A stretch of DNA of 63,903 bases, the filler included, from Raillietiella orientalis (Eukaryota): NCBI GenBank assembly GCA_036172245.1. It is 3 parts of 3 records of this genome, joined end to end, with 100 filler letters (N's around TTAATTAATTAA, not from the genome) between each part and the next. Parts side by side here need not be neighbours in the genome. Positions count along the whole stretch, not along the records: positions 1 to 22,243 come from JAYWIR010000230.1; positions 22,344 to 44,208 come from JAYWIR010000231.1; positions 44,309 to 63,903 come from JAYWIR010000236.1. The stretch is one strand, 5' to 3'. The notes below the pieces were generated by a model, which was not told the DNA's origin, searched no databases, and saw only the letters and a program-made list of their open reading frames with translations. Within the stretch, counting starts at the first letter, position 1; the number at the start of each line of letters is the position of its first letter. Of the stretch, positions 1 through 63,903 are shown piece after piece. The position numbers were made by a program, and so were the translations under genes.

Positions 1-205
1 GCACCGAACTTGGGATCCCCATCACGGAAGGCAGGACTTCCTTGCCACCGATGGACAACGGAGTACGGAGAAGACGCTGCACAAGTGCCGCGTTTTTACA
101 CCGTATCTTGGTGTATTCCATCCTGCCCGCAGGCATTTTCGCAAGGAGCTCCTCCTCCCGGACGCCGATCTGGACTAGATCATCGTTGAGCTCACGCCCG
201 GTCCT
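1..205 (-). mobile_element. Fragment of family E non-LTR retrotransposon ORF1
   Basis: Clearly similar to ~56300-56492 (e.g. GTACGGAGAAGxCGCTGCACAAGTGC...TATTCCATCCTGCC), which lies in the CCHC ORF1 at 55743-56534. Confidence 0.75.
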
Positions 206-2638
206 CGTTCGGTAAAGGTGCGACTTCTCCCTAAGGGAGGAGATCTGAGGAGCATAAACTGTCGTTCCATGACAATAGTGAATGCAAACGTCAAGTTGCT
301 AGCTAAGGTGTGAGCAGAGAGGTTGAGACCGGTTGCCAACATCTTCATCAGCCCGGAACAGACATATGCTGTTCTTGGGCGAAGCATAGAGGCGAACCTT
401 TTCTACGCTTGCACCTGGGTAGATCTCCGACAAGAAAGAAGCTTGGAGCGCAGCCGGAATTCCGGTGCGTGCGCCGGCAAGTAATTGGATAGTCGGGTGG
501 GGGAGGCAGCCCTTGCGGGCGCAATCGACTTGCGGAAAGCATTCGATTGCGTCGACCTGAATCTCCTTCTGGAGCTTCTGGAACGCTTGGGCTTCCCGGC
601 CTCATTAGTGGCCTATCTGCGCTTCTGCTGGCGCGACGCGCTCATCAACGTTACTTTCAGCGGGCAGACCGTGCACGGCATACCGTTGCGACGCGGCATA
701 CGGCAGGGAGACAGCCTAAGTCCCTTTCTCTTCAGTACCTACTTCGAGCTGATACTGAGAGCGTACAGGGTAACTCTAGCGCCCCTGCCGCGCGACTTTC
801 CCGGTATGCCCGCTCTGTCAGCATATGCCGACGACCTACTGCTGCTGCTCCCTATGTCCACCCCGGCATCGGCGGTCGAGGAGTACTTCGACCTGCTGCA
901 TCGGGAAACAGGACTTACGGTGAACAGTGTGAAGTCGTTCGTGATGCCAGCTGGTGCGGCGTGGGCAGGGCAGCAGGACTGGGTCCGTTTGGGGATTTCT
1001 ACGGTGAGGTACTTCCAGTACCTCGGCGTACCGATGGGGGATTATCTTCCTTCGGATGCGTGGTCCAGCTGCCTTCAAAAGGTAGAGACGGCGATCGGCT
1101 CGTTCCGAGGCCGCAGGTCTTTCCTGCCTAAACGAGCCGCGGTTTGGAATATGTTCGCGGCTCCTGTTCTCCGCCCCCTGCTTTTGTTTGCCCCCTCACA
1201 GAGAGGATTAAAAAGCGGACAAAGGACCTCCTCCGTATCGCCCTTTGGGACAACCGGAGTGCCCGAGTACGCGTAAAGGACTTGTGCGCTCCTTGTCGGG
1301 ACGGTGACCTGGGCCTCCTGACGCTGGAGCGGCTGGAGCTTCAGCTCCAGTTCCAAATGTCGGCACTTGTTCAAGAGTTGTGGTGCACCTGTTGGTGGGT
1401 CCGTGCACGTCTCCTTCTCCAGCAAGCCACCGGCAAGACAGGACTGACGTCGTTTCTTGCACTCCGTCGCCGCGTCAACCGATGCGGACTCCAGCTACGG
1501 AGGGTGGCTGCGCTGTAACGGAAAAACCCAGGATTGGTCACCTGTCTCCCTTTGAACGGTAGTGCCTGGTTGCAGGAAGCTGTTCGAACGTGGGGACAGT
1601 TCGGCATGCAACGCTCTTAACAGGAACGAAGGTTCCTGTTTAGGGGTTACAGAAGTTGCACGCTTCGCTAGATCCTGGAGGATCCAAAGAAGAGAGCGTG
1701 GGCAGGAAGAACCCCCCTCGCTGCTGCGCTACCCTCCCTGATGGAAGATCTAAACAGCGATGTTGCGGCGAAGTGGGAGGTTTCACTTACAATCTCCGGG
1801 AAGGAGAAGAAGATAGGAGAGTGTTATACGGGTCAGTTAACAGACGCTGCGTCCATGAGTACGTCTCCCAATGGACTTCTGCGCTGGGGCGCGCTGCTCG
1901 AAGTTCCCATTGAACATCTGAAGTGTTCCCCGGTGCTCATGAACACTTCCGCCCTACTCTTAAAATGGCAGGAGTCGGCTCTCCTGTTGCAGCACTGGGG
2001 ACTCCCATGCAACGCCCGCCGACACCACTGGACCTGGGGAGCGGTGGACCCCAATTGCGTCAGGTGTGGGGAACGGCATTCCCTCCCCCACCTGCTTGTG
2101 GATTGTGTTGCCCTTCGGCCCGTTTGGTTTCGCTTTGCCGCGGCCATCGGTATCCCCTGCGGCAACTTCAGAGACGCTCTGAAAGCTCTCTTCGTTGCCT
2201 ACGCCCTTCGGCCTGCGGCCTCGTTGGCAGCTTTGTGCTGCCTACGCGGGCTCGTGACCGCCTGGAGCAAGGCTACGGGGGGAAAACGCGTCCAGGGTGC
2301 CATCCAGCCAGCCTATTAGTTCCTGAGGAGGGCGTTCTTATGGCCTAACCTGGATCCAGGAATACAGAAGGAGCTTGCCGGCATCCTTCAAAGGATGCAA
2401 CGGCCCCACCAGCAACTGTGATCCCTTCCCTTACCCTCCCAACTTTTCTTTTCTTTTTTGTACTGTTTTTTGTTTTTCTTCCTTCCCCATGCTGCCGTGG
2501 TGGACCGTACCGGTCTGTGAACCGGTGACCCGGCAGGCTCTGTGTTTCTTCGTGCGTGGCTGGAGCAATGGTCCAGCCACTGCACGTCATTGTAAATGTT
2601 TATTAAACAATACACGCCTTGGCGAAATCAAAGTGGAA
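206..2638 (+). mobile_element. Tx1-like non-LTR retrotransposon, family A, 3' half (RT + CCHC + 3'UTR), degenerate
   Basis: RT motifs IDLRKAFD, GIRQGDSLSP, YADD and YLG (485-1276); CVRCGERHSLPHLLVDC (1741-2319); stops and frameshifts; ends in a degenerate hairpin terminus abutting ATCGAACGC at 2639. Confidence 0.92.
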
Positions 2639-5600
2639 ATCGAACGCTTTATGAAGATCAATTGCGATCACTAGGGCACCCTTACCCGTTCGGCTCTCCC
2701 CACTTTGACCAGCGCTCACCCTTTAATTGGGGTAGCCGAGAGATCTCTTGCGTTCTTTATTTCCTTGTTGCGCATGGAACCATGTGCTGGCGAGGAACAG
2801 GTTAGCCTCCATACTTCGCACGGGAACAGCGTATGTCTGTTCCGGGCTAATTATGGATTCGGCTAACTGTCCGAGCCGCGCAGCCCACAGTTTCGCCACC
2901 AACTTGACGTCCGTATTCACGACAGTGATCGGTTAGCTTACGGAGGTCTCCTCCCTTAGGAAGGAGCCTCATCCTAGCTGACCGGAACGAGACGGGAACA
3001 TCGCCTTCTTTCCGCATCAGCTGTGTCGATCTGTGCACCAAAGGGGTTTACTCTGCCGCGAAGCCTTAAAAAAACTCCGCGGGCAGGCCGTCCTTCCCTA
3101 GTTCCTTCCTCCTCTTGAGCCCTTTCATCGCGGTGACGATTTTACCGGTTGTAAAAGGCTCGTCGAGGCTTTCCTTCTCTTCCTCTCCTATGACCGGGGC
3201 TCCTTCCGGGAGCAACAGTCGCGAGGCGTCCTGCTCGGAAGGCCCCCTTTCATACAGGGAGGAATAAAATTTTCTCATAATGTGTCGAATCGCTGACGGG
3301 GCCGAGTGTTCGCGGTCTTGGTCGTCCAGCAGGGTGGGCGGCCCGGACTGCCAAGCTTGGCGCTCAGCCCCGGCTCGGTAGTCGGCCAGGCGACGGACGT
3401 TGGGGGTTCTCGCGTAACGACGTGCGTATAGAATAGCATTTTCGTTGCGAGTCCCTTCCTTCAACCCGGAAGGTAGGCGTCCCAGGGGAAACTCCTCACA
3501 GAACTCGCGGTCCGAACGCTCGAAAACGTCCCAATCCTCGAGATTCCGGTGGGTGACGCCTCTCAGGAATTGGCGAAGATGATCCGCCTCACCTGGGAGC
3601 CTCGTCCAATCTCCCGGTAGACGCCACGCCCTGGATGGGGGTCCCTTATTGCGTGGCCAGACATCGATCATCAGACGGAAATGGTCGGACAGCGTCGACA
3701 GGAGCCTTCCTCGTATACCGACACGAGTAGACATGTCGTGGTCGAGGAAGACGTGGTAGATGCTGTTCTCCATTCCCGGGTGTCCCTCCATCAAGTTGCG
3801 CGCGCGCATGGCGGAGCACAACTCGATCGGCACGTTGTTTTGAGTGCAGCACGCACCTGAGAGCAAGCAGATGTTAAAGTCCCCGGCTATCAGGTGGGCC
3901 TTGCGCACTCCTGCATCCGTCAGCCAGTCGCGCTTCAGGTACTGGAAGAACTGAGTTCTTCCTGAGTACCCTTTGCTGCCGCTCGGAGCATACACGTTCG
4001 TAACGATGAGATCGATCGTGTCAGACCAGCATAGTCATCTGTCCAACACGACCGTTGTCATCGAAGCGTACGTTCCTCACGGAGGCGTCGACGGCTGGCT
4101 TCAGGAAGAACGCGACACCGCAGGTGTTACGATCGCCGCATCGCCAATACAACCGAACCCCTGCGATCCTCTCGATCTCCTCGACTTCTCTTGCAGTGAT
4201 CACGTGGATCTCCTGCAAAAGCGCCAGGTCGAATTCTAGCAGGGTGTCAGCTGTATCTAGCCTGTTGCCGTCGTTGCGCAGCCCGTTGACATTCCAACAG
4301 GCGACGCGGATCCTTCGGCGACAGGCGAGCCCAGGGGTTATTCCTGAGAACGTGGCAGTGCGGTTCCCGCCACCTTATCGGGCGGGACGGATGGAGGAGG
4401 GGGTGCATCGAGCACCAGTTCTTCCTCCTCCATCGAGGCCGATTCGGATACAGGCCTCATCGCGGTGGGCAGGCAGGTATTTCCTACCTGCGCTTCCTCC
4501 TACATGAGGTCCAATTCGCCGGCTGGGACGGTCGGTGGAAGTGGGAGGTTGTCACCTACCTGCTCCCCCTCCTCCATCGGGGTTGACAGCTGCTCGGTCG
4601 CGGGGAGTGGAATATTAGCTCCCTCGTTACCGCGCTGTCGGCTCCCCCCCCGGCTGCCGGTGCGTCCTCATCCTCGTTCTTTGTCGGGAGTCGCTTTCTA
4701 GGATTCTTGGACTTGCGTTCCGTCTTCTTTGGAGGCGCCTTCGCGGAGAAGGACGCACTACAGGCATCCGGATCAGTATCACCTTCTTCAGGTGACTTCA
4801 CCGCGGCCGGCCTTCTCAAGGCTTTTCGCGCGGGGATCTCGTGGCCGACAAGTGCAGCCTTGAGCTCTTCCGCCGCCTGCTCGAGGGCGGCGTCCTCGAT
4901 TACGGACAGCGCGTCGTAAGGCTCCACCTCTGTTGTCAGAGAGGGTTCTCCTTCGGTGATCGCGGCTTCCACGCAAACGAGGCGGGGGATGTCTCCCCCG
5001 GTGGTGACCTCTAAGGCCTCCACTCCCTTCAAAGTGACCGAGCTTCCGCGGAGTAGTGCCCGGCGCTCTCTCCTATTCAGAGGTTTCTCCGCTGGCTCCG
5101 CTTTCGTGGCTACGGTTTTCTTTGGTTTCTTTTGCTTCACCGTCCGCCAGCCTTCCTCATCAGCGCCGTCGGGAGTTTTCTCGACCGGCGTTTGCTGTGA
5201 GGTTTCGAGGTCTGGCTTCTGGCTACGCCTTGCTGTAGCCTCCTTTGGATCCGAAGTTTTATCCGCGCGTGTCCCCTGAGCTTTCTTCAAAGCGGGGCGA
5301 CCCAAAGTTACGCGCTTTGGGCACACTTTCCGGAGGTGGCCCCTTTCTCCGCACGAGAAACACTAGATGTGGGGGCACCGTTTTTTCAGATGCCCTGTCG
5401 CATCGCAGTGTCCACAGAACTTGGGTTTCCCCACGTACCAGATATCGACCTTTTCGTTCGCGACGTCTAGCTTGTGGGGTGACGAACCGTTCTCATGCAC
5501 GGTTACACGCGCTGCGGCCATGACACTAAACAGCGTTCCATAGGACTGTAAGACGTTGGGCTTGCTCCAAAGCGCGTGAACCGTGCCGAACTTCCTGAGT

Positions 5601-6234
5601 TCCTCCTACACGCCCTTCGTCGACATGCGGAGGGTAACTCCCGTGAGGTGTGTCACTACCGAGCGGTCCTCAGTTACAGGGAAGAGCTTTCTGCCTTCCA
5701 GCGTAATGGGGGTGTTTAGCAGGCGTCGAGCCAGGCTTGCATCCTTACAAGTCAACTCCACCCGCTGACCACCGCTTAACACTGAAAGACCTTCCAACTC
5801 TTCTTTTTTAACATTAAGCCGCTGCAACGCCCTCTCAAAGTTGCGAGCGGTATTTCCAACAAAGATATTGCACCTTATAGATGAGGTACGCCTTGTACCC
5901 TTGTTCTTTATAGGCTCTTTGTTCGGCCAAGGCATCAGCGGATAGTGCTGCAGCCACTGCGCTTTAAGTCCTCATCGTTGCCGAGGATGGCTCCGAGGAC
6001 ACGCTTGCACGCTTTTTCAAGGAAAACGATGACCTCGCCTCTGTGTAGGCAATCGCCCGCTCCACCATGGGTTGGGGAAAGGCACTAGACTCTCCTACTC
6101 CAATCTCCATCGCGATGTCCGCTGGCATTTCTGCCATGGGACACCGACGATGGGCCACACACTCTCTCAAACGGAAAGAAATGAAGGAGACTTCCCAAGC
6201 TGAAGCGGTAAAAGTGCAGGATAAACACGTCCGA
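2639..6234 (-). mobile_element. Tx1-like element, family C, 5' part (ORF1, APE endonuclease, RT start), cut at the RT AFD motif
   Basis: ORF1 fragments 4556-6140; EN motifs WNVNG, QEIH, YAPS, AGDFN and SDH; RT runs to VIAIDLHKAFD at 2671-2639; 5' GGACGTG at 6232-6226. Confidence 0.9.
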
Positions 6235-9200
6235 ACAGTTCGACGAGAAAAGTCGTGTGGGCCAACTTGTCCTCAAGTGGTCCGAATCGATCGAACTGGT
6301 CGTAACGAACATCTACGCGCCTAGCGGCGGCCGGCATAACGCCCAGCGACTCGCATTCCTGGGTGGCCTGCGCAGCCGCTGACTCGCCGACTCCGGCTTT
6401 AACGTGGCGCACCTCCTTGCAGGAAACTTAAACGTCCACCTGCTAGCAGAGGAGAGATGCCGCTTGAGGGAGAAGCAACTGGTGAGCGAGGTTGCGCGTC
6501 CGTGCGCGTGCAAAACCTGCTTACTGGTGCGCCCGGGGTGGAGAGATCGCCGGACCATGCGTTCCTCGATGAACACCTGCTTTCACGAGTAGGTCGGAGA
6601 AGGCGCCTGCTGTCCGCGATTTCGGATCATCCGAGACGGGACTCCGAGCTCCTCCCGCCTGACAAAGGGCTTCCAATGAATGTCTGGAGGTTGCCAGCCG
6701 ACTGGATTAGCAATTCGGAGGCTGCGGAGCATTTCCTTCATCACCTCCGGGGCTTCGTCATCCGTGAACTCGAGGACTGGGACGATCTGAAAAAAACGGT
6801 CCGCGAGTTCTGCTGCCCTTTCCCCTTGCACCTGCTTCCCTGCGGCTTCAAGAAGGGTGTCACGAATAGCAGATCCTTTCTGCAGGCGCGAACCTTCTCT
6901 CGATGCCCAAACGTCCGGCGTTTGGCGGAGTACAAGGCCAGAGCCGAGCGCCAGGTTTGACACTCTAGAGCGGCTTGTCTGCTCGATCACGCTGGCCAGG
7001 AATGCTCGGCTGCAGCCGACGTACACCGCGTAGTCAAGCTTTTCTACTCCTCGTTGCACGCGGAGGAGCTCAAGGAACGCAGTCTCTCCGAGCTGCTTCT
7101 TCTGACGGGTAACCCTGCAATCGACGAGGAGGAAAGCGCCAGTTTGGATTGGCCCTTCACGGCGGAAGCAGTATCTTCCGCCATAGAGGGCCTGAAGAGG
7201 CGTGAGGCGCCTGGGGAGGATGGCCTGCCCGCGGAGTTCTTTCAGTGCTTCGCGGAGGAGCTCGTCATCCTGGCGCTAAGCCTTTCCTCGCTGATGCGTG
7301 AGACGGGAGATGTTCCCGCTTCTTTCCGCGCAGCAAAGGTGCGTCTCCTGCCGAAAGGTGGTGATTTGCGCCACCTCAGGAACTGGCGTCCGATCACCTT
7401 GGTGAATTCGGACGTCAAGTTGTTCTCCAAGCTATGGGTAGCGCGCCTGGGGAGAATCGCGGAGTCCTTGGTAAGTCCGGAGCAGAGGTATGCTGTTCCG
7501 GGGCGGGCCATGGACGCGAATCTCTTCTTCGCGCGAACATAGTTCGAGTTGCAGCAGCGCGTGGCGCAGCAGAGCCAGGCAGCCGAAATCGCCGCTGCCA
7601 AAAGTAAGCGGCGGTGTTCAAGGCACGATGGAACGACGGGGGCCTTAGCGGTCGCCGTCGATCTCTGGATAGCGTTTGACAGCGTAAACCAGCACCTCCT
7701 TCTGGAGCTTCTGGGACGCTTGGGCCTCCCGATGCACCTCATCTCTAACTTGCGCTCCTGCTGGCGCCACGCGTTATGCTGTATCTCTTTTAGCGGGCGC
7801 CACGTGTACGCCGTTCCCATGCGGCGGGGTATCAGGCAGGGAGACAGCTCAAGCCCCCTGCTCTTCAGCATCTTCTTTGAGTTACTGCTGAGGGCGTACA
7901 GGCTGACGCTGGCCAACCTGCCGAGCTCCTGTCCGGGAACTTCGGCCGTGGCCGCCTATGCTGACGGCCTTCTCCCGCTGCTGCCCATGTCCACCCCGGC
8001 GTCCAGACTCGAAGACTCCTTCGAGCTCATTCGTAGGGGAGCGGGCCTGAGCGTCAACAAGAGGAAATCAACCGTTGTACCGGTTGGCTCTACGTGGGAG
8101 CGGCAGTCCGACTGGATTTCCCTGGGGATCCCCACGGGCAGGTGCTTGAAGTACCTTGGCGTTCCCTTGGGCGCCTTCTGTGCATCAAAAGCGTGGTCGG
8201 ACTGCCTTCACAAGGCCGAGACTGCTCTGGGTCCGTTCCAACGCGGCAAGTTCCGTCTGTCGGAACGGGCCTTCGTGTGGAACATTTTCGTTGCCCCTTT
8301 CCTCCGTCCCCTCTTTTTTGTTTGTCCCCCTCCCTACTCGGCTAAGCGTCGGGCGCAACGACTGTTGCCAAACGCCTTGTGTTGACCGGCGAGGTCCAGG
8401 TTACGCCTCAAGGACTTGGGGGCTCCTCGGCGGGATGCAGGATTGGGCATCCTGACGCTGAAGCGGATCGGACTGCTAGTGGAGTTCCGCATGCTGGCAC
8501 ATTGCGCCCAGCTCTGGACTACTCCCTAATGTGCTCCAGCGCGGCTGCTGCTGCGGCGCTGCACGGGTGGCGACGGACTGCGTTCGTTGCACCTGCGCAG
8601 GGAGTGCGCTCAGAGAGGATTCGGCTTCCCAGTGAAGATGCTCTCCTCGCTTCTGGGAAAGCATGCTTGGATCTCCTGCCGGCCGACGAACCTCATCTCC
8701 TGCAGACTGGAAGCCTTATCGTCCTGGGCAGCGCAACAGGATGTGTCCCGTTTGGAGCTCCGTTGCGTGAACCTTTCCCCATACTGTCCAGTGGGTGAGG
8801 TGCTTGAAGACCAGGACCAGTGGACACGCCTAGCCGCCACGCCCCTCGCTGAAGCACTGTCTGCATTGATGGTGCGAGACGACAGTGACCTGCCGGCGAG
8901 GTGGGAGGTCGCTTCAGAAATCGCAGGCGAAACCCGACTTCTGGGCGGCAGGAGGACTTGCGAGCTGGCAGACGCTGCCACGCCTCGCCTTCGTGTTAAG
9001 GGACTTTTCCTGTGGAGTGAGCTCCTCGGGGTGCCCATCGAAGAACTTGTTATCCCTTCTGCGTGTTTGGACGCGACTGTCTTCCCCCTTCGGTGGAAAC
9101 AGGACGCTTTTCTGCTGGTGCATTGGGGTTTGTACTTCAACCAGCGGGTGCACCTGATTTCCGGGGGAGTTGCTTCCCCGAACTGTGCCGAATGCGGAGC

Positions 9201-9738
9201 GGTGGAATCGCTTCCGCATTTGCTGTTTGAGTGGGGTGCCCTCCAGGCGCTGTGGCGGCGGCTGTCATCAGCGCTCCTGCACCTTGGACACTCCGCACTG
9301 GATTGGATGCGTCGCTTCTAAACGCGTGGCGGTCTTTCTCTTGGAGCGGTCGTCGCAATCATCTTCTGCGTCCGCGCCATTGTCAGGGCCCGCCACTTAT
9401 TGCAGATGCGAGCGGTCCCAACATTGGTCCCCGACAGCGCAACCTGCTACCTGCAAATGGCTGCCGGGTGGCCACATCTGCGAGCATAAGTGAGGACGGA
9501 GATCGGCGGCATTCACCGCCGGTTCTGAGAATAGGAACGGTTAAACTGCATACCACTGTCCTCGCCCTTCCACCCTATTTATTTATTTATTGTACCCCCT
9601 TCTCCCGTTCCGAACTCTCAGTGTGCCCGGCCTACGTTCCGGAAAATCTACACCCCATCTTCTGTTCCCCTTCATGGGAACCCAATTTCAAGAAGATTTG
9701 ATTGTATTATTAAACGCCTCGGCGCAACCTGGTAATAA
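6235..9738 (+). mobile_element. Tx1-like element, family D, from mid-EN to 3' end, degenerate
   Basis: NIYAPSG, SDH, APGEDGLP, WRPITLVN, GIRQGDSSSP, YADG, YLG and CAECGAVESLPH motifs; 3' hairpin terminus 9709-9738. Confidence 0.9.
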
Positions 9739-10892
9739 ACAACGACGCTGTATTCTATGATTATCGCGCTTTCCTGGTCTTACTTCTTCTATTGGCAGGC
9801 GATTTTTTTCTCTAGCCTTCTGTCCTTCGATTTTTTGCCTGTTGCCACCTTCCATTCAGGCTCCTGACCGTTTCCCTCGACCTTTCCGGCGGTGTTTTCC
9901 GGGGTCTCGGGTGCGGATTGGGCCTTGGGCGCGAGTGGCACAGCCTTCGCGGCAGCTTTCGCTGCCAGCCCTTTTTGTATCAGGAGGGCGCGGTTTATGG
10001 ATTCCCCGCGGAAACCACGCGCACAGGGGCTTGTGGGCACACTTTCCTCCTGTTGCCCATTGTACCGCATACATGTCACTGTACGTTGGGGCACCTCTGT
10101 TTTAGGTATCGTGACCTATGGCAGAGGTCACAGTATTTCGGCTTTGCACACACCAGAGTTCGATAGTTTTGCCGCCGACTACCAGTTTGTGAGGAAGAGA
10201 ACTCCCTTCTGGGACGGTCATGCGTGAGGCTGCGAGACCTTATTGCATTCCGGTGTAGTGCTCGGAAGGACTAGGCTTGGTCGACATTGCATACGCGTCT
10301 CGTGTTCTTCCAACGCGTCGCGTACTTGTTATTACCGCATTCCCGCGGTGACTGCAAACAGTTGGATCACCATGCTGCTGTCCACCGTAATGGGTACAAT
10401 TCCGCGTTTAGCAATCTCTAGGATGGTTTTCAGCACACTTTGATACAGATCTGCCTGTTTGCAGATCAGCTCTACCTACTGCTCCACGCTGTGGATGGTC
10501 ATCGCCTAGGGTTCTTCCTTTTGTTCGTTGAGAGCGCACATCGCCTTCCAAAAGTCGCGCCCATTGTCGGGACAATAGAGATATCGTACCTTGAAGAGTA
10601 CTGAGAGTTTATAACCCTCCTCTTCATTGGCAGATAATTTCGCCGCGGCTGCAGGCGGTGGCGCCGCCACGACGGCGCTCCACGCCCGCGCTGCAGCGAG
10701 GACCGATTCTATATGGGACGGAAGCTCCCAACTCCATCGCCTCTGGGGCGACGTTGCCGCCGTCCACGAGCACTCACTGGTGGTCGTGTCAGACACCGCT
10801 CTCTGATCGACCACCGAACCACAGAACATTTCGCTCTAAGGGGAGGGTTTCCGGCACTGAGGAGCACCAAGAATACTTGTCCAAACCTCATC
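9739..10892 (-). mobile_element. Family A-like element, 5' part (ORF1 with CCHC knuckles), cut inside ORF1
   Basis: Homologous to 52699-53890 (AAARAWSAVV, KAAAKAV, WKVATGKKSK); degenerate. Confidence 0.85.
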
Positions 10893-10906
10893 AGCTAGGC
10901 ATTCCA

Positions 10907-11070
10907 ATTTCACACAGGTTTCGCCGGGGCGTTTACTCAAACAATAAACTTCAAGAAAGACGTGCAGTGGCTGGACCATTGCTCCAGCCTCGCACGAGAA
11001 ACACATAGCCTACCAGGTCACCGGTTCGCATACCGGTACGGTACACCACGGCAGCAGGGGGAAGGGGGAA
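10907..11070 (-). mobile_element. 164-bp 5'-truncated family A-like insertion (3'UTR only) with 14-bp TSD
   Basis: Family A 3'UTR plus hairpin terminus, flanked by AGCTAGGCATTCCA (10893-10906) and AGCTAGGCATTCGA (11071-11084). Confidence 0.85.
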
Positions 11071-11300
11071 AGCTAGGCATTCGACTGCGTGAATCAGGAT
11101 CTCTCTCTGGAGATCCTAGAACGCCTCGTTCTCTCGGTTCCCTCCGTAGCCTATTTGCAAACTCGCTGGCGCCTGGCGCTGATCTCCATCTCTTTCAGCG
11201 GCTGCCACGTGTACGGCGTGCCGCTATAACGAGGTATCAGGCAATGCGACAGTTCAATTACGTTGCACTTCAGCATTTTATTTGAGATGGCTATGAGGTT
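11071..11300 (+). mobile_element. RT fragment of a family D-like host element, beginning at the AFD motif
   Basis: Reads AFDCVNQDL...SFSGCHVYGVP..RGIRQ; similar to 7670-7890. Confidence 0.75.
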
Positions 11301-46298: not shown

Positions 46299-46310
46299 GG
46301 GTTTCGGCGA

Positions 46311-53897: not shown

Positions 53898-53913
53898 GCA
53901 CAGAGCGTTCGAT

Positions 53914-54927
53914 TTTCACCAGGATTTCGCCGGGGCGTTTATTGTAAAATAAACTCTTACAAAGACGTGCGGTGGCTAGACCATTGCTCCAGCCACGCAC
54001 GAAGAAACACAGAGCCTGCAGGGTCACCGGTTTGCGGACCGGTACGGTCCACCACGGCAGCATGGGGAAGGGGGAGAAACAAAAAACAAAACAAAAAAAG
54101 AAAAGAAAAGTAGGGAGGGTAAGGGAAGGGATCACAGTTGCTGGTGGGGCCGTTGCATCCTTTGCAGGATGCCGGCCAGCTCCTTCTGTATTCCTGGATC
54201 CAGGTGGGGCCATCGGGACGCCCTCTTCAGAAACTGGGAGGCTGGCTGGATGGCACCCTGGTCGCGTTGTCCTCCCGTAACCTTGCTTCAAGCGGTGACG
54301 ATCCCGCGTAGGAAACACAAAGCTGCTAACGAGGCTGCTGGCCGAAGGGCGTCGGCAACGAAGAGGGCTTTCGTTCCTCTTGGTAGCGTTGCATGCCGAA
54401 CTGTCATCACGTTCGAACGGTTTCCTGCAACCAGGCACTACCGTTAAACAGGCGACAGGTAAGCAATCCTGGGTTTTTCCGATAGAGCGCAGCCACCCTC
54501 CGTAGCTGGAGTCCGCATCGGTTGAAGCGGCGACGGAGTGCAAGAAGCGACGTCAGTCCCGTCTTTGCCGGTGGCTTGCTGGAGAACGAGACGTGCAGGG
54601 ACGCACCAACAGGTGCACCACAACTCTGGAACGAGTGCCGACAAGCGAAACTGGAGCTGAAGCTCCAGCTGCTCCAGCGTCAGGAGGCCCAGACCACCAT
54701 CCCGACGAGGAGCGCACAAGTCCTTTAAGCGGACTCGGGCCCTCCCGTTGCCCCAAAGGGAGATACGGAGGAGGTCCTTTGTCCGCTTTTTAATCCTCTC
54801 TGTGGGGGGGCAAACAAAAAGCAGATGGCGGAGGAAAGGAGCCGCGAACGTGTTCCAAACCGCGGCCCGTTCAGGCAGGAAAAACCTGCCGCCTCGGAAC
54901 GGGCCGATCGCCGTCTCTACTTTTGAC
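53914..54927 (-). mobile_element. Tandem family A copy, 5'-truncated, with internal deletion
   Basis: Highly similar to 48354-48800 joined at ~54371 to the equivalent of 49354-49908. Confidence 0.92.
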
Positions 54928-55442
54928 ACTTGAACACCCAGACTGCGCAGCATGTGGAGACACCGAAACGAGACTTCACGTTTTGACGTGTCCCAGATCG
55001 CTGCATGACTGGCTGATACTGAGAAGGATCAGCGGACTCACGAACACATCCGTAATGGAGATCCTCGCCGGGATGTTTCACGGGGATGGTAATGTTCCCT
55101 GTTACAATCCCAAGGTGAGGACGATCATAGCCCTATTCCTCACCGCCATACTTGTGCGGTGGTGAAAAATGAGAAAAGCAAAGTGAGCTGCACCACCGAT
55201 GGAGATCCTACAACGGTTTCTGAAGGTGGAAATCGGTATTGGGAACTGCGGGAAGTTCCACGTCTGGACGTACCGATTCATCCTGAAGAGGATCGAGGAC
55301 GACGCCCGGGACCATCCAGCTAGATTCCCCACCCGAAAAGCAGAACTCCAGTGCAACCCAAGGACTTCCAAGTGCAAAGTGTTTGTATTGAGCAAATGAG
55401 AGTGTGAATGTAAAAACTGTATTTTTATCGAAAAATAAATTT
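54928..55442 (+). mobile_element. 3' end of a family F element
   Basis: CAACGDTETRLHVLTC; homologous to 27600-27890; AATAAA at ~55434-55439; no hairpin. Confidence 0.78.
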
Positions 55443-56828
55443 ACCGAACCCCTTGTGGGACATGGGGAAATTGCCGAGACGGCTATGGAGCGACTGCATG
55501 CAGCGTGCTTTTGCTCGTCGCAACGCTGCTTTTCACGGCTTTCGTAGCCTTTGCAGAGCCACCTGCGCTGCAGTGGAGCAGTCCGGAACTCGAAAGAAAC
55601 AACGGAACGGGGCAAGAAGTCTTCGCACTGTTGCGTTCTTCCTGCTTTCCTACCTTTCCCTCCAGGGTGTTACGGAGATTCCCTGATTCCTGGCTCGGAG
55701 AGGTGCCTGCGAGTTGGGCTGCGAGGGAGGGCACGGCACTCGTCAAACCCGCGCGGGCCTTTTAATTGGCTTCCCCGTCGCAACTTTCCCCTTTCGTCGC
55801 GTTGCGGACGGGGATGCTTTCTTTTCATGCGCGGATCGCTCGTTGTTTTTTTCGAGTTTTCGCGGACGACGTTTTTTATTTGCGGCTGCGGCTATTCGTG
55901 CAGTGGTCTCTTGAACCCGACAAATTTTTCCTGAAGCTCTTTTTCTTGCAAGTACCCGGCACTTTTTGATTTTCGGCCCGGAATCTGTGCAATAGCGGCA
56001 TCTTGGAGAAAGGCACTCATTAATTCGGTGCTCATCCTTACCGCACTGCTCGCACGCGCGAGTCTGACCTACGAACCACAGGTGAACGACCGTGCCGTTC
56101 ACCTGCAGTTGCTCAGGGACAAAACGCCTGTTCGCGACGGTGATCTGCGCTGAGGCTTGTCCGATTTGAACAGAGGAGAAATCCGTCGAAGTGTTTATAC
56201 ACCTCCACAGGGCGTGCACGGTGGCAAACTTCGCCACCACGCTTACAACATTGCGGTCGGAGATTTCCGGTTCGATGTCGCACCATTGGACGACAAAAGA
56301 GTCGTCCATCGCGGTTGTTAGGACTTCCTTGCCATTGATTGGCAACGGCGTACGGAGAAGGCGCTGCACAAGTGCTGCGTTCTTGCACCGAATCTTCGTA
56401 TATTCCATCCTGCCAGCAGGCATTATGGCAACGAGTACCTCCTCGCAAACGCCGATCCGGACGAGCTCATCATTGAGCTCAGGTCCGATTCTCCCGTTAA
56501 GGGTTCCACTGATCTTATAACAGAGTGCAGGCATGTATCCTCATGACACATATGCCTAAAACTCCGCATCGCAGAGTCCTAGTCTTTGGGAGGTAAAGGC
56601 GGCGTAACTCCTCACCGGGGCAAGGAAACCATTACGGAGGATGCGGCCGCTTCAAGTGCAGCTGAAGTGCATCCAGTGGCTTGCTCCTCCACACTATCCT
56701 GTGTACTGGCCATGTTGCACTAAGCTACTTGGCAGATTGCACAGGAACCCACAAGTGCGAGCGAAAACGCAGGCACAAAGTTGGCCGATCGTTGGCGCGG
56801 GTAGACGCCGAAACACGTCTGTACTGTA
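55443..56828 (-). mobile_element. Family E element, 5' part (divergent ORF1)
   Basis: ORF 55743-56534 with VHLWFVGQTRACEQCGKDEHRINEC; 5' AGACGTGTTT at 56820-56811. Confidence 0.78.
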
Positions 56829-57564
56829 CGAGCGCAAGAGATCGCACGGATCTCGGGTGGGCGGCTGTTGTGGCGTGGCAACACCGCGAAATCAAGCAGC
56901 GTCGCCTTCCGGCTTCGGCCAGCCATCGAGACCGCAATGAAGGACCTTCGGTTCGATGACGCAGGTCGCGTCGGTCAGCTGACTCTCAGCTGGTCCGACT
57001 ATTTCGACCTGGTCGTCAGCAACCTATACGCTCCTAGCGGAAACTCCGCGTTGTGGGCGAAGGCACGAAGGGAGTTCTACCTTGTCTTGAAACGCAATTG
57101 GCTGACCGATGCAGCAGTTCGCAAAGCGCACCTGATCGCAGGTGATTTCAACCTGCGCCTGCTTTCAGGTGCGCCGGATACACTGAACGACCGCGTGAAC
57201 GAGTTGGGCGCACAAATAAACGCGCAACTTGTTGGCCGGGGATACGGCCATGGAACGCAGCATCGATCACGTGTACCTTGACTAGCACCTATGCTCTCGG
57301 GTGGGCAGGTGCGGCAAGGTACAATCCGAGCTGTCAGATCATGGTCGGATCATGTTCGAAGTGCGTTTGCGCGACAAGTGCCTTCCATCGTCAGCGTGGC
57401 GTCTGTCAGGGGACTGGCTAAAGTTCCCGACGCGGCGGAGCACCTCCGCGCGTTTATTCGGAGCTTCAGGATGCAGACACTTCAGGACTGGGACCGCTTC
57501 AAGCGGTCGGTCCAGGAGTTCTGCGACCAGTTCCACCTGCATCGCCTACCTGCGGGATTTGGGG
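56829..57564 (+). mobile_element. Family A-like host EN segment (left part)
   Basis: AQEIARISGGRL..RFDD..NLYAPSG..AGDFN..SDH..TLQDWDRFKRSV..LPAGFG. Confidence 0.9.
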
Positions 57565-60500
57565 TTGTCACCCGGGTACGCCCGAAGCGTTTATTGAGAA
57601 AAACTCTACATAAACGTCGTACGAGGCCCCACTAACGGCCACACAACGCCGGACCTGCCGCAACGCCGGGACGCATCCCATTGTGACGCTCCTCGGCAGT
57701 GGAGGGGGATAATGATCAAAACAAAAAGAAAAATAAAGATGAGGAGAACAAAAAAAAGTTTGGAGGAAGGGAAAGGGATCACAATCCACTAGAAGAAAAA
57801 TCCGTTCCTTCGCAAGATGCCCTCCAGGTCCATCTTCATGCTTCCCAGAAGGGGCCATCTCGCAGCTCTCCGCATGAAGCAGACCGCATACGGGATGACA
57901 TCTTTCGCGTTGGCATCCACTCCTTCGTCGCGAATGTCGCTCCAGGCTGCCACGATGCCCCGAATGCAGCCGAGGGCTGCGAGGGCTGCGGCGGGCTGCA
58001 GGGCGTCGCGCATGAAGAGGGACCGAAGAACGTCTCTGTGCGCGCTGCCCTTTGGGAGCCCGAGGGTCGTTCCGAACCGTTCCCACAGGGGTCGGAGGGC
58101 AGCACAGTCAACAAGTAGGTGGGGGAGCGAATCCCGCTCCCCTCACCTGGCACACTCAGGCCTTACACTTCCCCGCGTCCAGTGGAAGCGGCGCGCGTCG
58201 CAGGGTAGACCCCAGGGCAACAGCAGCAGCGCCGAATCTTGCCACTTCGTTGGAAGAAGCTTGGAGCCAATTAATATTGTGGGCCACTTCATGTCATCCG
58301 TCGGGATGCCGAGCAGCTCGCCCCATCTTCAAAGTTCACACGGGAGGGCACTCGGGGTCGTGGCACCTGCCAGTTTTTCCAAGGTCCAAACGCTGTTCTT
58401 CTTTTCCTTGCCTGCGATTCGGCAAGAGACTTGCCACTTTGGAGTACGGCCGCTGGTTAAAGCCGTTCGTAGGAAGGGCAGGTTCGAATCTAGAGGGGTA
58501 GTCTTCGCTCACGTGCTCCTGGCGGGACACTCCAGACTAGTCCGCAGTGTGCAGCAGGCGTTGGGGCCGGATCGCAGGCGGTTTTATTCCGAAGAAGTCT
58601 GGAGGTTTAGCTTGGCCCACGTCGCAACGGATTCCTCCAGCCAGGCGGAGGATTTGGCGGAGCTGCATACCGTCCAGCCGTTGTCTCTCAACAGGGCTTC
58701 CATGCGCTCAAGGAGAGAGCCGCATCTTCTGACCTTCCTGCCAGAGCACAGAAGGTACTACGCGTGTCATTGCGTCCTGGAGACACGGCTGGCGAGGATA
58801 CTAGCCGGACCTCACCAAGGGGTGCTCCATGAATTCACTGCGATGGCGGTGGTGCGCCATCGCAACTGTATGTCCAGGCGATCCAGCGTCAGGATGCCGA
58901 GACCGCCGTCCCGACGAGGAGCGCATAAGTCATCTAGAGGCACACGTGGCCTCCCGCTGCCCCGAAGGGCGATGTGGAGTAGGTCGTTGGTCCTCTTTTT
59001 TATGTCACGGGGGACGGGGCAAACAAAAAGCAGTGAGCGGAGGATGAAAGCCGCAAACGCGTTCCACACCGCGGCCCGTTCAGGCAGAAGGAACTTGCCT
59101 TCCAGGAACGGGCCGATTGGCAACTCTACATTCTGGAGACTTCCTGACCAGGCTTCTTAGAGGCAGAAGTCCTTCAACGGGACACCCAGGTCCTTCAGGT
59201 ACCTGGCCACGGAAATCCACAAGCTAATGCAGACAGGCCGTCCGACCCACGTCGCACCCACCGGTACGACCGACGACTTCGCCTTGTTTACCCGAAGTCC
59301 AGCCCCACGACTTAGCAGGTCGAAGAAATCCTCGACTGCGGCTGCCGGGGCGGACATGGGCAACATGAGCAGAAGGTCGTCGGCGTATGCTTCTACGGCG
59401 GGAGTGCCGGGGCACAAGCTGGTCAGAACAGCCAAAGTCACCCTGTACGATCTCAGCACCAACTCAAAGTAGGTGCTAAAGAGCAGGGGACTGAGGCAAT
59501 CGCCTTGCCGTATGACACGCCGCACCGGCACGCCGTACACCTGTTGGCTGGAGAAAGTGATGTTAATTATGGCGTTGCGCCAGCAGGAGCGCAGAAAGGA
59601 GAGAAGGTAGGGTGGGAAGCCCATGTGACCCAGAAGCTCCAACAGTAGCTTCTGGTCAACGCAGTCGAACGCCTTATGGAGATCGACCGCGATCGCTATG
59701 GCCTTCTTCCCAGCCCAGGTGTCCATTCGCAGCCCAGCTGGCGGCCCCAAAGTGGGGTTGTCAATCTTACCGCTAGTGTCATTTAGGCAGTGCTGCACAT
59801 GGAACCATGTGCACGCGAAGTACAGGTTGGCATCCATACTTACGCTCTGGAACAGCGTATGTCGGCTCCAGGCTAATTATAGAGTCTGCCACCTGTCCTA
59901 GACGCGAAGCCCACATTCCAGCGACCAGTTAGGCGTCCGTATTCACAATTGTGATCGGACGCAAATTGCCTAAGAATTTAATGTCTCCTCCCTTAGGGAG
60001 GAGCCTCACACGGGCTGACCAAATTGAAGCGGGAACGTCATCTCGGATCAGCCCTTTCAACTGGAGCACCACGGGGGCCAGCTCCGCCGCGAAGCATTGA
60101 AAAAATTCCGCAGGCAGGCCGTCGCCCCCTGGCGCCTCACGCCTCTTGAGCCTTTTAATACCGGGGATAATTTCACCGGTAGAAAAAGGCTCGTCGAGGC
60201 TAACCCTCTCCTCCTCCTCTATTGCTGGTGCTCCGTCCGGAAGCAGGAGCCGCGATGCGTCCCGCTCTAGGGGTGCCCTAGCGTAGAGGGAGGAATACTA
60301 ATGCCGCACAAGGTGCCTGATCGCAATTGGGGCCCATCGCTCCCGGCCCTTGTCGTCCAGCAAGCTGGCCTACCCGGAGTGCCAGGCTTGGCGCTTGGCC
60401 CCGGCTCGATATTCGGCCAGGCGACGGACATTGGTGGTCCTGCGTACTGGCGGGCCTGTAAATAGGCCGTATGGTTCCAAGCCCCTTCTAAAAATCCGGG

Positions 60501-63227
60501 GGACAGGCGGTGCAGGGGGAAATCCTCGCAGAACTCGCATACCGAGGCCTTGAAGAGGTCCCAATCTATGAGACTGCTGAGGGTGACGCCTCTCAGGAAT
60601 TCGCGAAGGTGATCCTTCGCACCTAAGAGCCGCGTCCAGTCCCCAGGCAGCCGCCACGCTTTGGACGGGGGTCCTCTTTCGCGCGGGCAAACCTCGGCGA
60701 TTATCCTGAAATCGTCCGACAGCGTCGACGCAACTTTCACCCGTTTACCGACCCTTAAGCACAGGTCGGCATCCAGGAAGAAATGGTCGATGCTGCGGTC
60801 CATTCACTTCGCATCCGCCAACGAGGTGTGCGTGCGCATGACAGCGCAAAACTCGTTGACCGTGCGTTCTTTTGCTTCGGGCTCACCTGACAGCAGTCGC
60901 AGATTAAAGTCTCCAGCTATCAGGTGTGCCTTTTGTACATTCGTGTCGGCCAGCCATTCGGGGTTAGGGGTTTCCAGCAGCCTGGTACGGTCGCTGTATC
61001 CCTTTTTTCCGCTAAGTGCGTACATTTTCGTGACGACCAGATCGATCGAATCGGACCAGCTGAGAGGCAGCTGACCTACCCAACCGTCGCCATCGAAGCG
61101 TACGCCCTTCACAGCAGCGTCGATGGCCGGCTTTACGGAAAACGCTACCCCACAGGTGTTCCGGGCGCCGCATCGCCAGTACAGCCGACCCCCCGCGATC
61201 GTTTCCATCTCCTGGACGTCTGCCGCAGAGATCACGTCGATCTCATGCAGCAGGGTTAGGTCGAACTCACGCAGGGTGTCGGCCGTATCTCGTCTGTTGC
61301 GTCGTCGCGCAGCCCGCTGACGTTCCAACTGGCCACGCGGATTCGACGGCGACAGGCGAGCCCAGGTGTTATTCCTGGGTAATCGGATCTGCGGCGTCCG
61401 CCACCTGTTGGGGCATGACGTTAGATGGAGAAGGAGAGGGACAGGTGCTGAAGGCACCTGGTCCTCCTCCTCCATAAGTACCGTAGCGTCGAGCTGCTCC
61501 CTATCCGGTGGGGTCGCGCCTACCTGTTGGCCCTCCTCCATAGGGGTGGGCTGTCCAGATTTCGCGAAGGCAAGGAACACCACGCCTCCCTGCTCACCCT
61601 TCTCGATGGAAGTGGCCGACTCGACGACTTCCGCGCGTGGGATTTCCCCATCCGGGATTCCCACGCTGCCGTCGGCTTCCTCCTTCTCCTCCTCGCTCGT
61701 GGAGGGGAGGCGCCTCCTCGGCTTTTGGGACCTGCGTCCGCTCTTCCGGAGGTTGCCTCCGACGAGGAGGATGCACTTCCGGCCCCCAGGTCGCACTCAC
61801 CTGCGGGGGCTTTCTTCGCGGAAACCGGCCTTCGCACGGCCTTGCGCGAGGGGTTCTCACGCTCGACCAGCGTGGCCGCGAGCTCCTCCGCCGCCTGAGC
61901 GAACGCGGCGTCCTCGCTTTCGGCGCTCGCTTCGCGCGGCTCACCCTCTGATCAACCAGTGGGTTCGCCGTCGCGAACCTCGGGCGCGGCGCAAACGGCG
62001 AGGGGAGGCTCGTCGCCCCGGGTGGCAACCTCGGGAACGGCAACCCGTTCGATTGCCAGCGTGCACTCGCGAAGAGTTTTCGAGCGCGGACCGGATTTTT
62101 TCGGTTACGCGCTCTTTTCTTTCTTCGCTCTCGCAGGTTCCACGGGGGGAACTTTTTTCTCCTTCCTGGCCTTAACCAGCTTTCATCCTTCTTCCTCTCT
62201 TGCGTCTTCAGTGGGGTTTTCCTCCGACGCCTGGTTGGGTGGAACAGGAGATGGCGGCTGGGGCCGGCCAGTATCGCGCACTGGTCTTTCCTCCAGCTTG
62301 GCTCCTTTGCCCTGTGCCTTTCTGGCTGCAGGGGGAACCGGGGAGGGGCGTTTTAAACACACGCGCCGAACGTGGCCGCGCTTCCCGCACAGGTGCTAAT
62401 GGATGTTTGCACATCGTCTGCGAACGTGTGCTACGGCATCTTTGTAGCCGCAATACCATGGCTTCCCCACGTACCAGAGGTCGACCGATTCTCTGGCAAC
62501 CTCCAGCTTGTGCGGGAGCCCACAATCCTCATTGACGGTGACTCGCGCCGCAGTCTGGCCCCCGGAAAGGTTATTGTAGCCTTCAAGGATCGTTGGTTTA
62601 GGCCACAGCGCGTGCACATCGCCGTATTCTTTTAATGCCTCACTCACTGCAGAGCGAGACATGCGGTTCTTGATTCCGGTTAAATACACCACAACGGAGC
62701 GGTCCATTGTAACCGTATAGATCTTGTGGCCTTCTACCGTCAGTGGGTTATTTATCAAGCGCTGTGTCGAAGTGATGTCTTTGCACACCACCTCAACTTG
62801 GTGACCCCTGCTGAGGACGGAGAGGCCGTCAAGATCTTCTTGATTAACAGTCGCTGACTGCAGCGCCCTCGTTAAGGCACGTGCAGTCTTCCAGTCGAAC
62901 AGGTTGCCTATGTTGTATACAAGCGATGGCTTCTACCCGACGGCCTTGTACGTTGCTTGTTCAGCCAAGGTTTACGCGCTAGGCGCGAAAACCATGGCGC
63001 TTAAGCTCCTCGTCTTGGGCGACCAGGGCGATTCCAGGGAGGATGCCCCTGATTCTATAGTTCTCGGGGGGGGTTAGCCTCTTCCACTCCTACCTCCATC
63101 GTGGTGTCCTCTGGCAGCGATGCCATCAAAAACAAACGATGTGAAACAGCACACACTTAACCAAAGAAAACCGCTTTCCAGTACTCGTACTTAGAGCGCC
63201 GGAAGAACACGTCCACTCTCGGAAAGA
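57565..63227 (-). mobile_element. Full-length (~5.66 kb) family B Tx1-like retrotransposon nested in the family A-like host
   Basis: ORF1 from ATG ~63126, EN, RT (DLHKAFD, YADD), CCHC and hairpin end; flanked by GGGATTTGGGG (57554-57564) and GGGAGTTGGGG (63228-63238); host resumes collinearly. Confidence 0.93.
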
Positions 63228-63903
63228 GGGAGTTGGGGAGAGGCCAAGTAACGAAAGGTGCTATCTTCAGGCCCGACGTTACGCAAGAACCCCCGACATG
63301 CGCAGGTTAGCGAAATACCGAGCGAGAGCCGAGAGGCATGCCTGGAAATCCGGGTTGGCCAGCTTGCTGGGTGACCAGCGTCTGGAGCACTCGGTTCCGG
63401 CTCAGAAACGCAGGATAGTGAGGAAATTTTACTGTTCCCTGTACGTCACTTCGCCTTTGGAGCAGGATATTTTACGACTCCTGCTTCCGGAAGGTGCTCC
63501 AGCGATTGGGGAGGTGGAGAAAAGGAAACTCGACGAGCCTTTCACGATGGGCGAGATCATCTCGGCCATCGGAAAGCTCAAAAGGCGAACGGTTCCAGGG
63601 GAGGAAGGATTGCCTGCGGACTTTTATCAAACTTTCGCATCAGACGTTACCCCCTTGGTACATCAGCTCACCTTGCTGATCCGCGAAACAGGTGACGTTC
63701 CCACCTCGTTTCGTTCGGCAAAGGTGCGTCTCCTCCATAATGGAGGAGACCTTAGGAGCATGAACATCTGACGTCCTATCACAATAGTGAATGCGGACGC
63801 CAAGTTGCCAGCCAAGCTGTAAGCAGAGCGCCTGGGACGGTTCGCCAGCATCTTCATCAACTCGGAACAGACATATGCTGTTCCCGGGCGAAGTATGGAA
63901 GCG
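63228..63903 (+). mobile_element. Family A-like host ORF2 (right part, linker + RT start)
   Basis: RRLAKYRA...PGEEGLPADFYQ...SFRSAKVRLL; continues 56829-57564. Confidence 0.9.

Follow-up and report, generated by a model that had tools for sequence, protein, structure and literature searches.

Related retrotransposon families in two GC-rich islands of Raillietiella orientalis appear to insert at fixed coding sites of one another

Why do the retrotransposon copies in a short stretch of the Raillietiella orientalis genome repeatedly end at the same few coding positions of their own relatives? The question arises from a preliminary description of 63,903 nt of assembly GCA_036172245.1, in which three parts of three records are joined by filler (the whole stretch is referred to here as the window). 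GC content is 57.5 % at 1–11.3 kb and 57.9 % at 43.2–63.9 kb, as against 39–45 % in the region between. It is likely that the two GC-rich islands (1–13.9 kb and 43.2–63.9 kb) are nests of no fewer than five sibling families of autonomous retrotransposons without long terminal repeats (non-LTR) and with an apurinic/apyrimidinic endonuclease (APE). Each family quite probably integrates through target-primed reverse transcription (TPRT) at its own short sequence within the coding region of related elements.

The type of element was established from its domains. In a Pfam search of the GC-rich blocks, RVT_1 was found in eight stop-to-stop frames at E ≤1e-7 (best 5.6e-16) and Exo_endo_phos at 51293–52207(−) with E 2.4e-13; zf-RVT was matched weakly (E 1.8e-4, under the Pfam cut-off). 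A PDB search shows that the endonuclease (EN) frame resembles ExoIII/APE1 and the human L1 EN, and the frames of open reading frame 1 (ORF1) carry one or two CX2CX4HX4C (CCHC) knuckles. These elements are therefore APE-type non-LTR retrotransposons. They have the N-terminal APE-like endonuclease followed by a reverse transcriptase (RT) that defines APE-type long interspersed nuclear elements (LINEs), together with the footprints of TPRT: inserts of 163, 388 and 1204 nt with complete 3′ ends, target-site duplications of 12, 12 and 11 nt, and no LTRs. Searched against the PDB, the RT piece gave two weak R2 matches only. In the protein databases a 403-aa RT piece gave nine longer matches at 25–31 % identity, the best of them at 28 %, and one near match at 68 %, all unnamed. 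An RT relative, P0010, is an uninterrupted 619-aa protein (JGI source, 2870-nt contig) with RVT_1 intact and the same DLRKAFDCVDQ motif as the full-length A-type copy FL1, to whose broken RT it is 68 % identical; intact relatives of the A-type family therefore exist elsewhere. The protein clusters nearest to the elements carry the labels Chordata and Bacillariophyta.

FL1 (48355–53890, minus strand, 5536 nt), the sole A-type copy that is full-length and free of inserts, served as the ruler onto which fragments were mapped, with extension by tblastx. As the preliminary description had it, 10 of the 11 3′ termini in the window adjoin one of four positions in related elements, and in 10 out of 10 the insert is antisense to the coding strand of its target. 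These positions are the AFD site in RT motif A (FL1 ~3467; 3′ junctions 2639, 10907, 48354 and 53914), the GFG site in the EN–RT linker (FL1 ~2646; 44368, 46311 and 57565), the QFD site in the endonuclease (FL1 ~2043; 43922), and a site in ORF1 (ECSVV/EYSVV, FL1 ~1199; 9738 and 13533). The 11th terminus (26127, element X) is in non-repeat DNA. Naming of the ORF1 motif needs a correction, since EYSVV is what the two occupied targets have and ECSVV is confined to FL1; likewise, the motif remnant at 10907 reads AFQ, not AFD. The four 5′ junctions that had been put forward in support, at 6235, 11071, 47516 and 63228, were found at QFD, AFD, GFG and GFG, respectively. In total, eight 5′ junctions, taken as five full-length and three truncated ends, are at the same four sites or at a fifth, AQEI (GCGCAAGAGAT(Y)^, FL1 ~1926 in the endonuclease), where the 5′ junction is at 56826/56827. 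Five full-length 5′ ends adjoin sites or their remnants (T1 at 6235, T3 at 10890, U2 at 46294, FL1 at 53890 and U5x at 56826), and a sixth, U7 at 63228, adjoins GFG of U6. Remnants of the motif, 17–24 nt long, form 3 of the 10 flanks (10907, 46311 and 53914) and are followed directly by the 5′ end of another element.

The choice of target follows the family of the 3′ untranslated region (UTR), as had been proposed: A-type ends are at AFD in 4/4 cases, G-type at GFG in 3/3, E-type at the ORF1 site in 2/2, and Q-type at QFD in 1/1. Target-site duplications flank the three inserts that have both flanks in one target (12/12, 12/12 and 10/11 nt), and empty copies of the sites are present in FL1, A205, U7, T1 and U6a. 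AFD is empty in 2 of 2 A-type copies, and one G-type copy was struck by a G-type insert. Counted as separate insertions, 13–14 went into repeat motifs and one elsewhere. Chance cannot account for one position of a 5.5-kb element having received five separate A-type copies. Domains, junctions, and duplications together support the reading that related APE-type elements were inserted antisense, by TPRT, into fixed short sequences of their relatives.

All 11 of the 3′ termini previously listed are real, to within 1–2 nt. A profile of the last 45 nt, built from the 11 termini themselves, by construction recovers the same 11 (E 8e-11 to 3.6e-6), and the next match in the window is at E = 6, therefore no terminus was missed there. 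The pattern first used to describe them, AATAAACGCCCCGG-N5-6-CCGGGTG, is matched exactly by only 1 of the 11 (26127–26152) and would therefore be too narrow for scanning a whole genome. Scans with looser settings, together with direct reading, give, in 11/11 places, (A/C/T)AT/GTAAACGYCCCGG, a loop of 4–6 nt, CCKGGTG, and then 2–4 A. What had been labelled hairpin-type termini is a short conserved CCGG...CCGG palindrome, and the 28-nt terminal sequence is itself conserved among copies. The consensus fold of the 11 termini has four pairs at ~0 kcal/mol, one of them with a compensatory change, and the single-sequence folds are unremarkable (z −1.05 to −2.41), therefore the feature is regarded as a conserved palindrome, in which an RNA hairpin is putative only. 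AATAAA, ATTAAA, AGTAAA, or CATAAA precedes the terminus in 11/11, ending 19–25 nt upstream (32 nt in the degraded 2639 copy). These hexamers suggest that the terminus may be the mRNA cleavage site, with reverse transcription starting at the first few A residues. The 5′ ends of the elements share GGACGTGTT ~5–20 nt from the junction, and Rfam and tRNA scans identified neither a ribozyme nor a tRNA at element ends. A metagenome scan with AAACGCCCCGG-N4-7-CCGGGTG returned 119 loci, of which none resembles the window by blastn and which gave trivial matches only by tblastx; as candidate relatives they were rejected as chance GC-rich palindromes without resemblance to the window.

Some further features of the ends were recorded in passing. 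The 5′ ends at 53890, 46294, and 63228 start GGGTGGACGTG, the 3′ ends at 46312 and 48355 close ...CCGGGTGGAA or ...CCGGGTGAAA, and GGGTGRA is common to element 5′ and 3′ termini. The A-type 3′ UTR contains a well-conserved stem-loop, GTGGCTGGAGCAATGGTCCAGCCAC, with a 9-bp stem, at 48440–48475(−) and at homologous places in A205, U5, and shortA. It appears in the minimum-energy fold; other families have a different element there.

How much sequence is recognized can be estimated from the unoccupied sites. Short cores are abundant in the window (TTCGAT 37 times, TTCGACG 14, and TTCGGCG 11) and nearly all are unoccupied; since TTCGAT alone occurs 37 times, the recognized sequence must be longer than these. 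Longer cores of the five sites occur nine, four, two, three, and two times, almost only at homologous positions. The nine occurrences of the 9-mer GCRTTCGAY, on both strands of 63.9 kb, comprise four occupied AFD sites or their duplicated copy, three empty AFD sites (A205, FL1, and U7), and two that are elsewhere and empty. The G-type 11-mer occurs four times, always occupied or as the duplicated copy. Both occurrences of the QFD core, CAGTTCGACG, are at junctions. For the ORF1 11-mer there are two occupied sites and the empty FL1 copy, and for the AQEI 12-mer the copy in U6a and the empty one in FL1. The view that the targets are indispensable conserved motifs is supported in part: AFD is RT motif A, but the ORF1 site was found in no copies other than the A-type ones, and the G-type core is confined to occupied sites. 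Targets occupied at QFD carry CAGTTCGACG, where other families have CGSTTCGAYG. From the restriction of the ORF1 site to A-type copies and of CAGTTCGACG to QFD-occupied targets, it appears that some families in effect target particular relatives; the motif that the A-type targets is shared by several families.

Further evidence comes from a public run outside the window (X1), which contains 7 % of the words of the window's non-repeat stretch and 364 contigs at least 80 % like the FL1 region. Six of its 254 loose ends were covered, two of them informative, so that the run lends support without being a census. Two X1 contigs cross the AFD site of a U4-like copy uninterrupted (...GCATTCGA then CTGCGTCGACCAGGATCT). 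The site is empty there, which shows that the A-type nick falls immediately after TTCGA. Since Q- and G-type nicks follow TTCG plus 3 nt, a fixed 'TCG-N3-nick' rule valid across families was rejected. One contig joins a terminus ...AATAAACGCCCCGGCGTGACCGGGTGAGA, with the loop CGTGA (a sixth loop type), antisense at FL1 ~1926, which is the fifth site. Listed X1 joints were also considered as junctions and were explained by cross-alignment of homologous copies. A 98-aa peptide across the 48354 junction, searched against 1.84 billion representative proteins, gave two matches, both unrelated repeat proteins.

A mechanism can be proposed in which the element endonuclease, possibly assisted by other parts of ORF2, cuts the target's coding strand at a sequence that is particular to each family and exceeds ~9 nt. 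The nick sites would be ...GCRTTCGA^ (RT motif A), ...TTCGGCG^ (EN–RT linker), CAGTTCGACG^ and GCGCAAGAGAT(Y)^ (both endonuclease), and AGCGTCGTYGT^ (ORF1). The freed 3′-OH would then prime cDNA at the end of the element RNA, 19–25 nt past an AAUAAA-type hexamer, with 2–4 A only. With the nick in the target's coding strand, every insert would come to be antisense. A second nick, usually 11–14 nt off, would give rise to the target-site duplication, and the 17–24-nt remnants may be longer duplications from wider spacing. The duplicated site would still be usable, so that a second element could insert beside the first, building nests as much as five levels deep. The most likely cause, judged from Tx1L, R1, and comparable APE-type site-specific LINEs, is endonuclease specificity, and a multi-copy target that is harmless to the host would be an advantage.

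Island 1 is a nest five deep in which the strands alternate, A205(+) in T1(−) in T2(+) in T3(−) in T4(+), inserted at AFD of T1, QFD of T2, the ORF1 site of T3, and AFD of T4; by type, the order is A-type within Q-type within E-type within an A-like element. The window opens with an ORF1 fragment (L0, 1–204, −) that is U5x-like (82 % to 56306–56493) and adjoins the truncated 5′ end of A205 (205–2639, +), an A-type copy (FL1 3122 to end) with a degraded 3′ terminus at 2639 joining AFD of T1. T1 (2640–6235, −) is a 5′ part (FL1 ~3470 back to 1) cut at AFD by A205, and is taken to be Q-type because its full-length 5′ end at 6235 adjoins QFD of T2. The E-type T2 (6236–9738, +) starts at QFD (FL1 2034) and reaches position 9738, where its 3′ terminus meets the ORF1 site of T3. 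T3 (9739–10890, −) is a 5′ part (FL1 1192 back to 1), A-like and 75 % to FL1, with a 5′ end adjoining an AFD remnant (10891–10907, +). This remnant, between T3 and shortA, is the upstream duplicated copy of T4. ShortA (10908–11070, −) is a 163-nt, 5′-truncated A-type insert with the duplication AGCTAGGCATTC on both sides (12/12), in the duplicated AFD copy beside T3, and T4 (11071–11300, +; right-hand limit approximate) is the target element from AFD on (FL1 3455–3680). Further along, a 155-nt ORF1 fragment (j, 13379–13533, +) ends at the ORF1 site and is identical to the matching part of T3 at 150/155 positions; joined to it there is a 388-nt E-type 3′ end (13534–13921, −), 84 % like that of T2.

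In island 2, U4(+) received U2 followed by U3 at GFG, and FL1 at AFD; U6(+) received U5x at AQEI and the full-length U7 at GFG; and the G-type U2 was itself struck at GFG by another G-type element. The island begins with U1 (43196–43922, +), a fragment (FL1 ~1300–2040) that ends at QFD, where it was struck; the Q-type 3′ end joined there (43923–44208, −; loop CTTGA) runs into N's. Downstream of the N's, the last 60 nt of a G-type element (44309–44368, +) is joined to GFG of U2. U2 (44369–46294, −) is a 5′ part (FL1 2645 back to 1) that has lost an internal segment; its 497-aa frame, derived from ORF1, contains two CCHC knuckles, and its 5′ end adjoins the GFG remnant of U4 (46295–46311, +; ATACCGGGTTTCGGCGA). 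Next are U3 (46312–47515, −), a 1204-nt, 5′-truncated G-type insert with the duplication GGGTTTCGGCGA (12/12), and U4 (47516–48354, +), which covers GFG to AFD of the target element and is a family of its own, 61–63 % identical to the others. FL1, which has many frame breaks, has its 3′ end in AFD of U4 and contains empty copies of all five sites; its 5′ end adjoins a different AFD remnant, of 24 nt (53891–53914, +). Beyond this are U5 (53915–54926, −), an A-type 3′ part with an internal deletion (FL1 5089–4538 missing), a fragment (54932–55523, +) like the C-terminal region of X (27396–27986), and U5x (55959–56826, −), a 5′ part (ORF1) with a 5′ end adjoining AQEI in the endonuclease of U6. 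The latter is present from AQEI to GFG as U6a (56827–57565, +; FL1 1914–2645). The full-length G-type U7 (57566–63228, −; 5663 nt) is at GFG of U6 with the duplication GGGATTTGGGG/GGGAGTTGGGG (10/11, by eye), after which U6 resumes as U6b (63229–63903, +), 79 % to FL1, and runs off the window.

The head-to-tail pairs shortA–T3, U3–U2, and U5–FL1 are separated by the 17–24-nt motif remnants; shortA–T3 and U3–U2 would fit a second insertion into the duplicated site copy left by the first. U1 and T2 were considered as halves of one element, with the Q-type 3′ end at 43923 as the missing 3′ part of T1, but this is a doubtful reading because the succession of these parts in the window does not suit simple nesting. 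Element X (26128–30700, −; 5′ limit approximate) is a lower-GC (49 %) relative with the same 3′ terminus in non-repeat DNA, and no target-site duplication was found around its approximate limits. A 455-aa open frame without a Pfam match, at 57793–59157(+), is antisense to the 3′ third of U7, where the sense frames are broken; it may be a chance frame from GC richness.

Could the shared junctions be copies of one event per site, a few nested insertions having been copied many times over through segmental duplication or the amplification of higher-order repeats? In favour of this, the two islands consist of repeat arrays, a single BLAST high-scoring segment pair spans insert and flank (205–3140 vs 50769–47844), and the flanks at the ORF1 site are 97 % alike (150/155). 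In such a duplication, insert and flank would have diverged equally, and neither the AFD nor the ORF1-site pairs show this. Targets that share a site come from families just 55–71 % alike, as against 84–89 % for the inserts. Over the GFG–AFD stretch, identity between the AFD targets T1 and U4 is 61 % (49–71 % per 100 columns of the multiple alignment) and the inserts are 88 % alike, with A-type 3′ ends in general 84–89 % alike; at the ORF1 site the difference is reversed, the inserts being 84 % alike (321/384). A free-end-gap alignment of the first 500 nt of the 2639 and 48354 flanks gave 74 %, for which the multiple alignment is the better figure. The GFG–AFD comparison covers T1, U4, and U6, with T4, U2, and the 24-nt AFD remnant being without that stretch. 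The GFG targets U4 and U6 are 63 % alike over the same stretch; in the one GFG pair compared, inserts (44/57) and flanks (410/570) are close to each other. Since insert and flank divergence differ at AFD and at the ORF1 site, these events are considered independent, and each complete insert has a target-site duplication of its own. Descent from single insertions, which the preliminary description had named as what would overturn its proposal, is thereby contradicted in this window and appears highly improbable. Least probable of all is an artefact of assembly from collapsed or chimeric repeats. There is a run of N's (44209–44308) at one junction region, and between the islands pieces of rRNA are mixed with organelle-like and bacterial-like ones, but precise duplications and consistent orientation are unlike mis-assembly, and the same kind of junction is present in independent X1 contigs.

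Two other explanations concern how the sites are found. The elements might be directed to a chromatin region, a centromere-like or silenced island as proposed for Zepp, and there have only a short TTCGA preference, the sites being the best local matches. In four sites out of five, TCG is 1–4 nt before the nick, and the elements form clusters richer in GC (58 %) than their surroundings at 39–45 %, which is also how Zepp is described in the part of that account used here (PMC3446292). However, the short cores are common and stay almost all unoccupied, one position was used by five A-type copies, and families keep to their own site although the same targets hold all sites; regional targeting is therefore rated as unlikely. 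The element RNA or cDNA might instead pair with the related target, displacing the coding strand for nicking, as would suit the nicking of the target coding strand in five of five site classes and the homology of all targets. Against such pairing, the families are only 59–71 % identical around the sites, the 3′ tails and loops show no complementarity to the targets by inspection, one orientation in 5/5 has a chance of ~1 in 16, and known APE-type site-specific LINEs use protein recognition (see PMC1919474). Homology-assisted targeting seems improbable too, and if anything slightly more so.

Several observations weigh against integration of each family at its own site as the whole account. QFD has one 3′ and one 5′ junction with identical 11-nt cores, which by sequence could be one event or two, and at AQEI there is only a 5′ junction within the window. 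The antisense rule rests on five independent site specificities, for which the probability by chance is ~1 in 16, and so far it calls for no special account. Some limits agree with none of the sites or with no clean nest: the 204/205 junction at the truncated 5′ end of A205 is at none of the five sites, the limit of T4 at ~11300 fits no clean nest, the 543-nt composite at 13379–13921 has outer limits (13378/13379 and 13921/13922) in non-repeat DNA at no known site, and the 5′ junction of U5 (54926/54927) is likewise at no known site. The flanks of FL1 mismatch, the 24-nt AFD remnant agreeing with the U4 site at 15/24 positions (by eye), and therefore this remnant is not FL1's duplication of U4; the disagreement points to recombination among copies, or to other rearrangement. 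The N run at 44209–44308 interrupts one junction region, and reading frames are broken in every element copy of the window. All the evidence is sequence-derived, from one window and one run, and the base for speaking of a community is thin (this window and two informative loose ends of that run).

Target-specific integration, quite probable as it is, has precedents. Zepp of Chlorella/Coccomyxa and ZeppL of Chlamydomonas are L1-type LINEs described, in the sections drawn on here, as nesting in their own copies and forming GC-rich clusters (PMC8226300, PMC3446292). By the same descriptions, nested clusters, many 5′-truncated 3′ ends, and GC-rich peaks are common to them and to the present islands, where nesting is up to five deep in localized clusters of 57.5–57.9 % GC against 39–45 %. 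Unlike Zepp, there are at least five families here, each with its own defined sequence, in relatives of other families and in their own, and always antisense. Zepp copies carry a 3′ poly(A) tail; the copies here end with 2–4 A after ...GGGTG, with no long poly(A). The accounts of Zepp, in the parts consulted, state no defined sequence or orientation, and the difference holds by these descriptions only (PMC8226300, PMC3446292). Cnl1 of Cryptococcus is described, in the part of the account used, as a non-LTR element with a preference for insertion into its own copies, which gives nested arrays where most copies are 5′-truncated (PMC9942834). As there described, it is a single family in tandem orientation near telomeres, unlike the several families, antisense orientation, and five sites found here; insertion of the tandem kind is not seen, 10/10 repeat-directed 3′ junctions being antisense and the head-to-tail pairs each consisting of two inserts that share one site of a third element, to which they are antisense.

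Tx1-clade LINEs, a group found in animals, have strict target sequences, and Tx1 inserts into the transposon Tx1D, according to the portion of PMC4494074 used. In the same portion, Tx1L, Keno, Kibi, and Koshi are APE-type elements with a target-sequence preference, as are the elements here, with 10/11 termini at four sites. Unlike Tx1L, of which the target Tx1D is an unrelated DNA transposon, and the others, which are described there as using snRNA genes or microsatellites, the targets here are coding motifs of related LINEs. R1 and R2 have a multi-copy target under purifying selection and one fixed nick site per family (see PMC1919474, PMC5035012). As with R1/R2, several families share a target unit at different positions and the same site is used repeatedly. 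Unlike R1/R2, the target here is the elements' own kin and the inserts are antisense. The target of R1/R2 is a host gene, into which they insert in sense orientation for co-transcription. Overall, the present elements are regarded as target-specific LINEs closest to Zepp, Cnl1, and Tx1L, and not as a new kind of element; their proposed place in the Tx1 clade is putative. In the open-access full-text literature, Repbase and Dfam being outside this search, no account was found of multiple LINE families that target one another's coding motifs.

A more doubtful extension is that the sibling families form a guild, splitting the coding sequence of their kin into at least five integration niches, always with the coding strand nicked, so that each would be both parasite and host. 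The only abundant landing pads in the genome would then be other guild members, and target motifs could not mutate away because active targets need them. Mutual insertion would build and renew the GC-rich islands, which may serve as centromere-like domains. The disruption of competitors suggested in the preliminary description would be a speculative adaptive reading. If true, this would be a clear case of transposons living on transposons, with a bearing on the building and upkeep of repeat islands and possibly of centromeres. Most known site-specific LINEs target host multi-copy genes, telomeres, or microsatellites, and such LINEs offer a natural model of gene insertion that is RNA-templated and programmable. 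A set of closely related APE-type elements with differing targets would be a natural experiment on small-step shifts of endonuclease and RT specificity; if true genome-wide, there would be at least five matched pairs of an enzyme and a 10–12-nt site.

The AT-richer middle of the window contains some unrelated features. A class II aminoacyl-tRNA synthetase-like frame at 25466–26113(−) starts 14 nt past the 3′ terminus of X on the same strand (tRNA-synt_2b 6.7e-6 and tRNA-synt_His 1.4e-4, both under Pfam cut-offs). Far from any rDNA unit, a eukaryotic large subunit (LSU) rRNA fragment is present at 23639–24180(+) (Rfam RF02543, model 955–1444 of 3401, 333 bits). The segment 30000–34400, with a GC skew of +0.25 to +0.33, cytochrome b at 30994–31398(−), and a Proton_antipo_M/NADH dehydrogenase piece at 32281–32730(+), looks like an organelle-DNA insertion. 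Weak bacterial-type domains are present at 33868–37832 (PseudoU_synth_2 33868–34398, T2SSE 36160–36546, and NMT1_3 37455–37832), of which only NMT1_3 is above its Pfam cut-off (34.4 vs 27 bits), PseudoU_synth_2 and T2SSE being under theirs. An exact 119-nt inverted repeat is present at 13249–13367 and 22122–22240, its second copy ending 3 nt before an N run (22244–22287).

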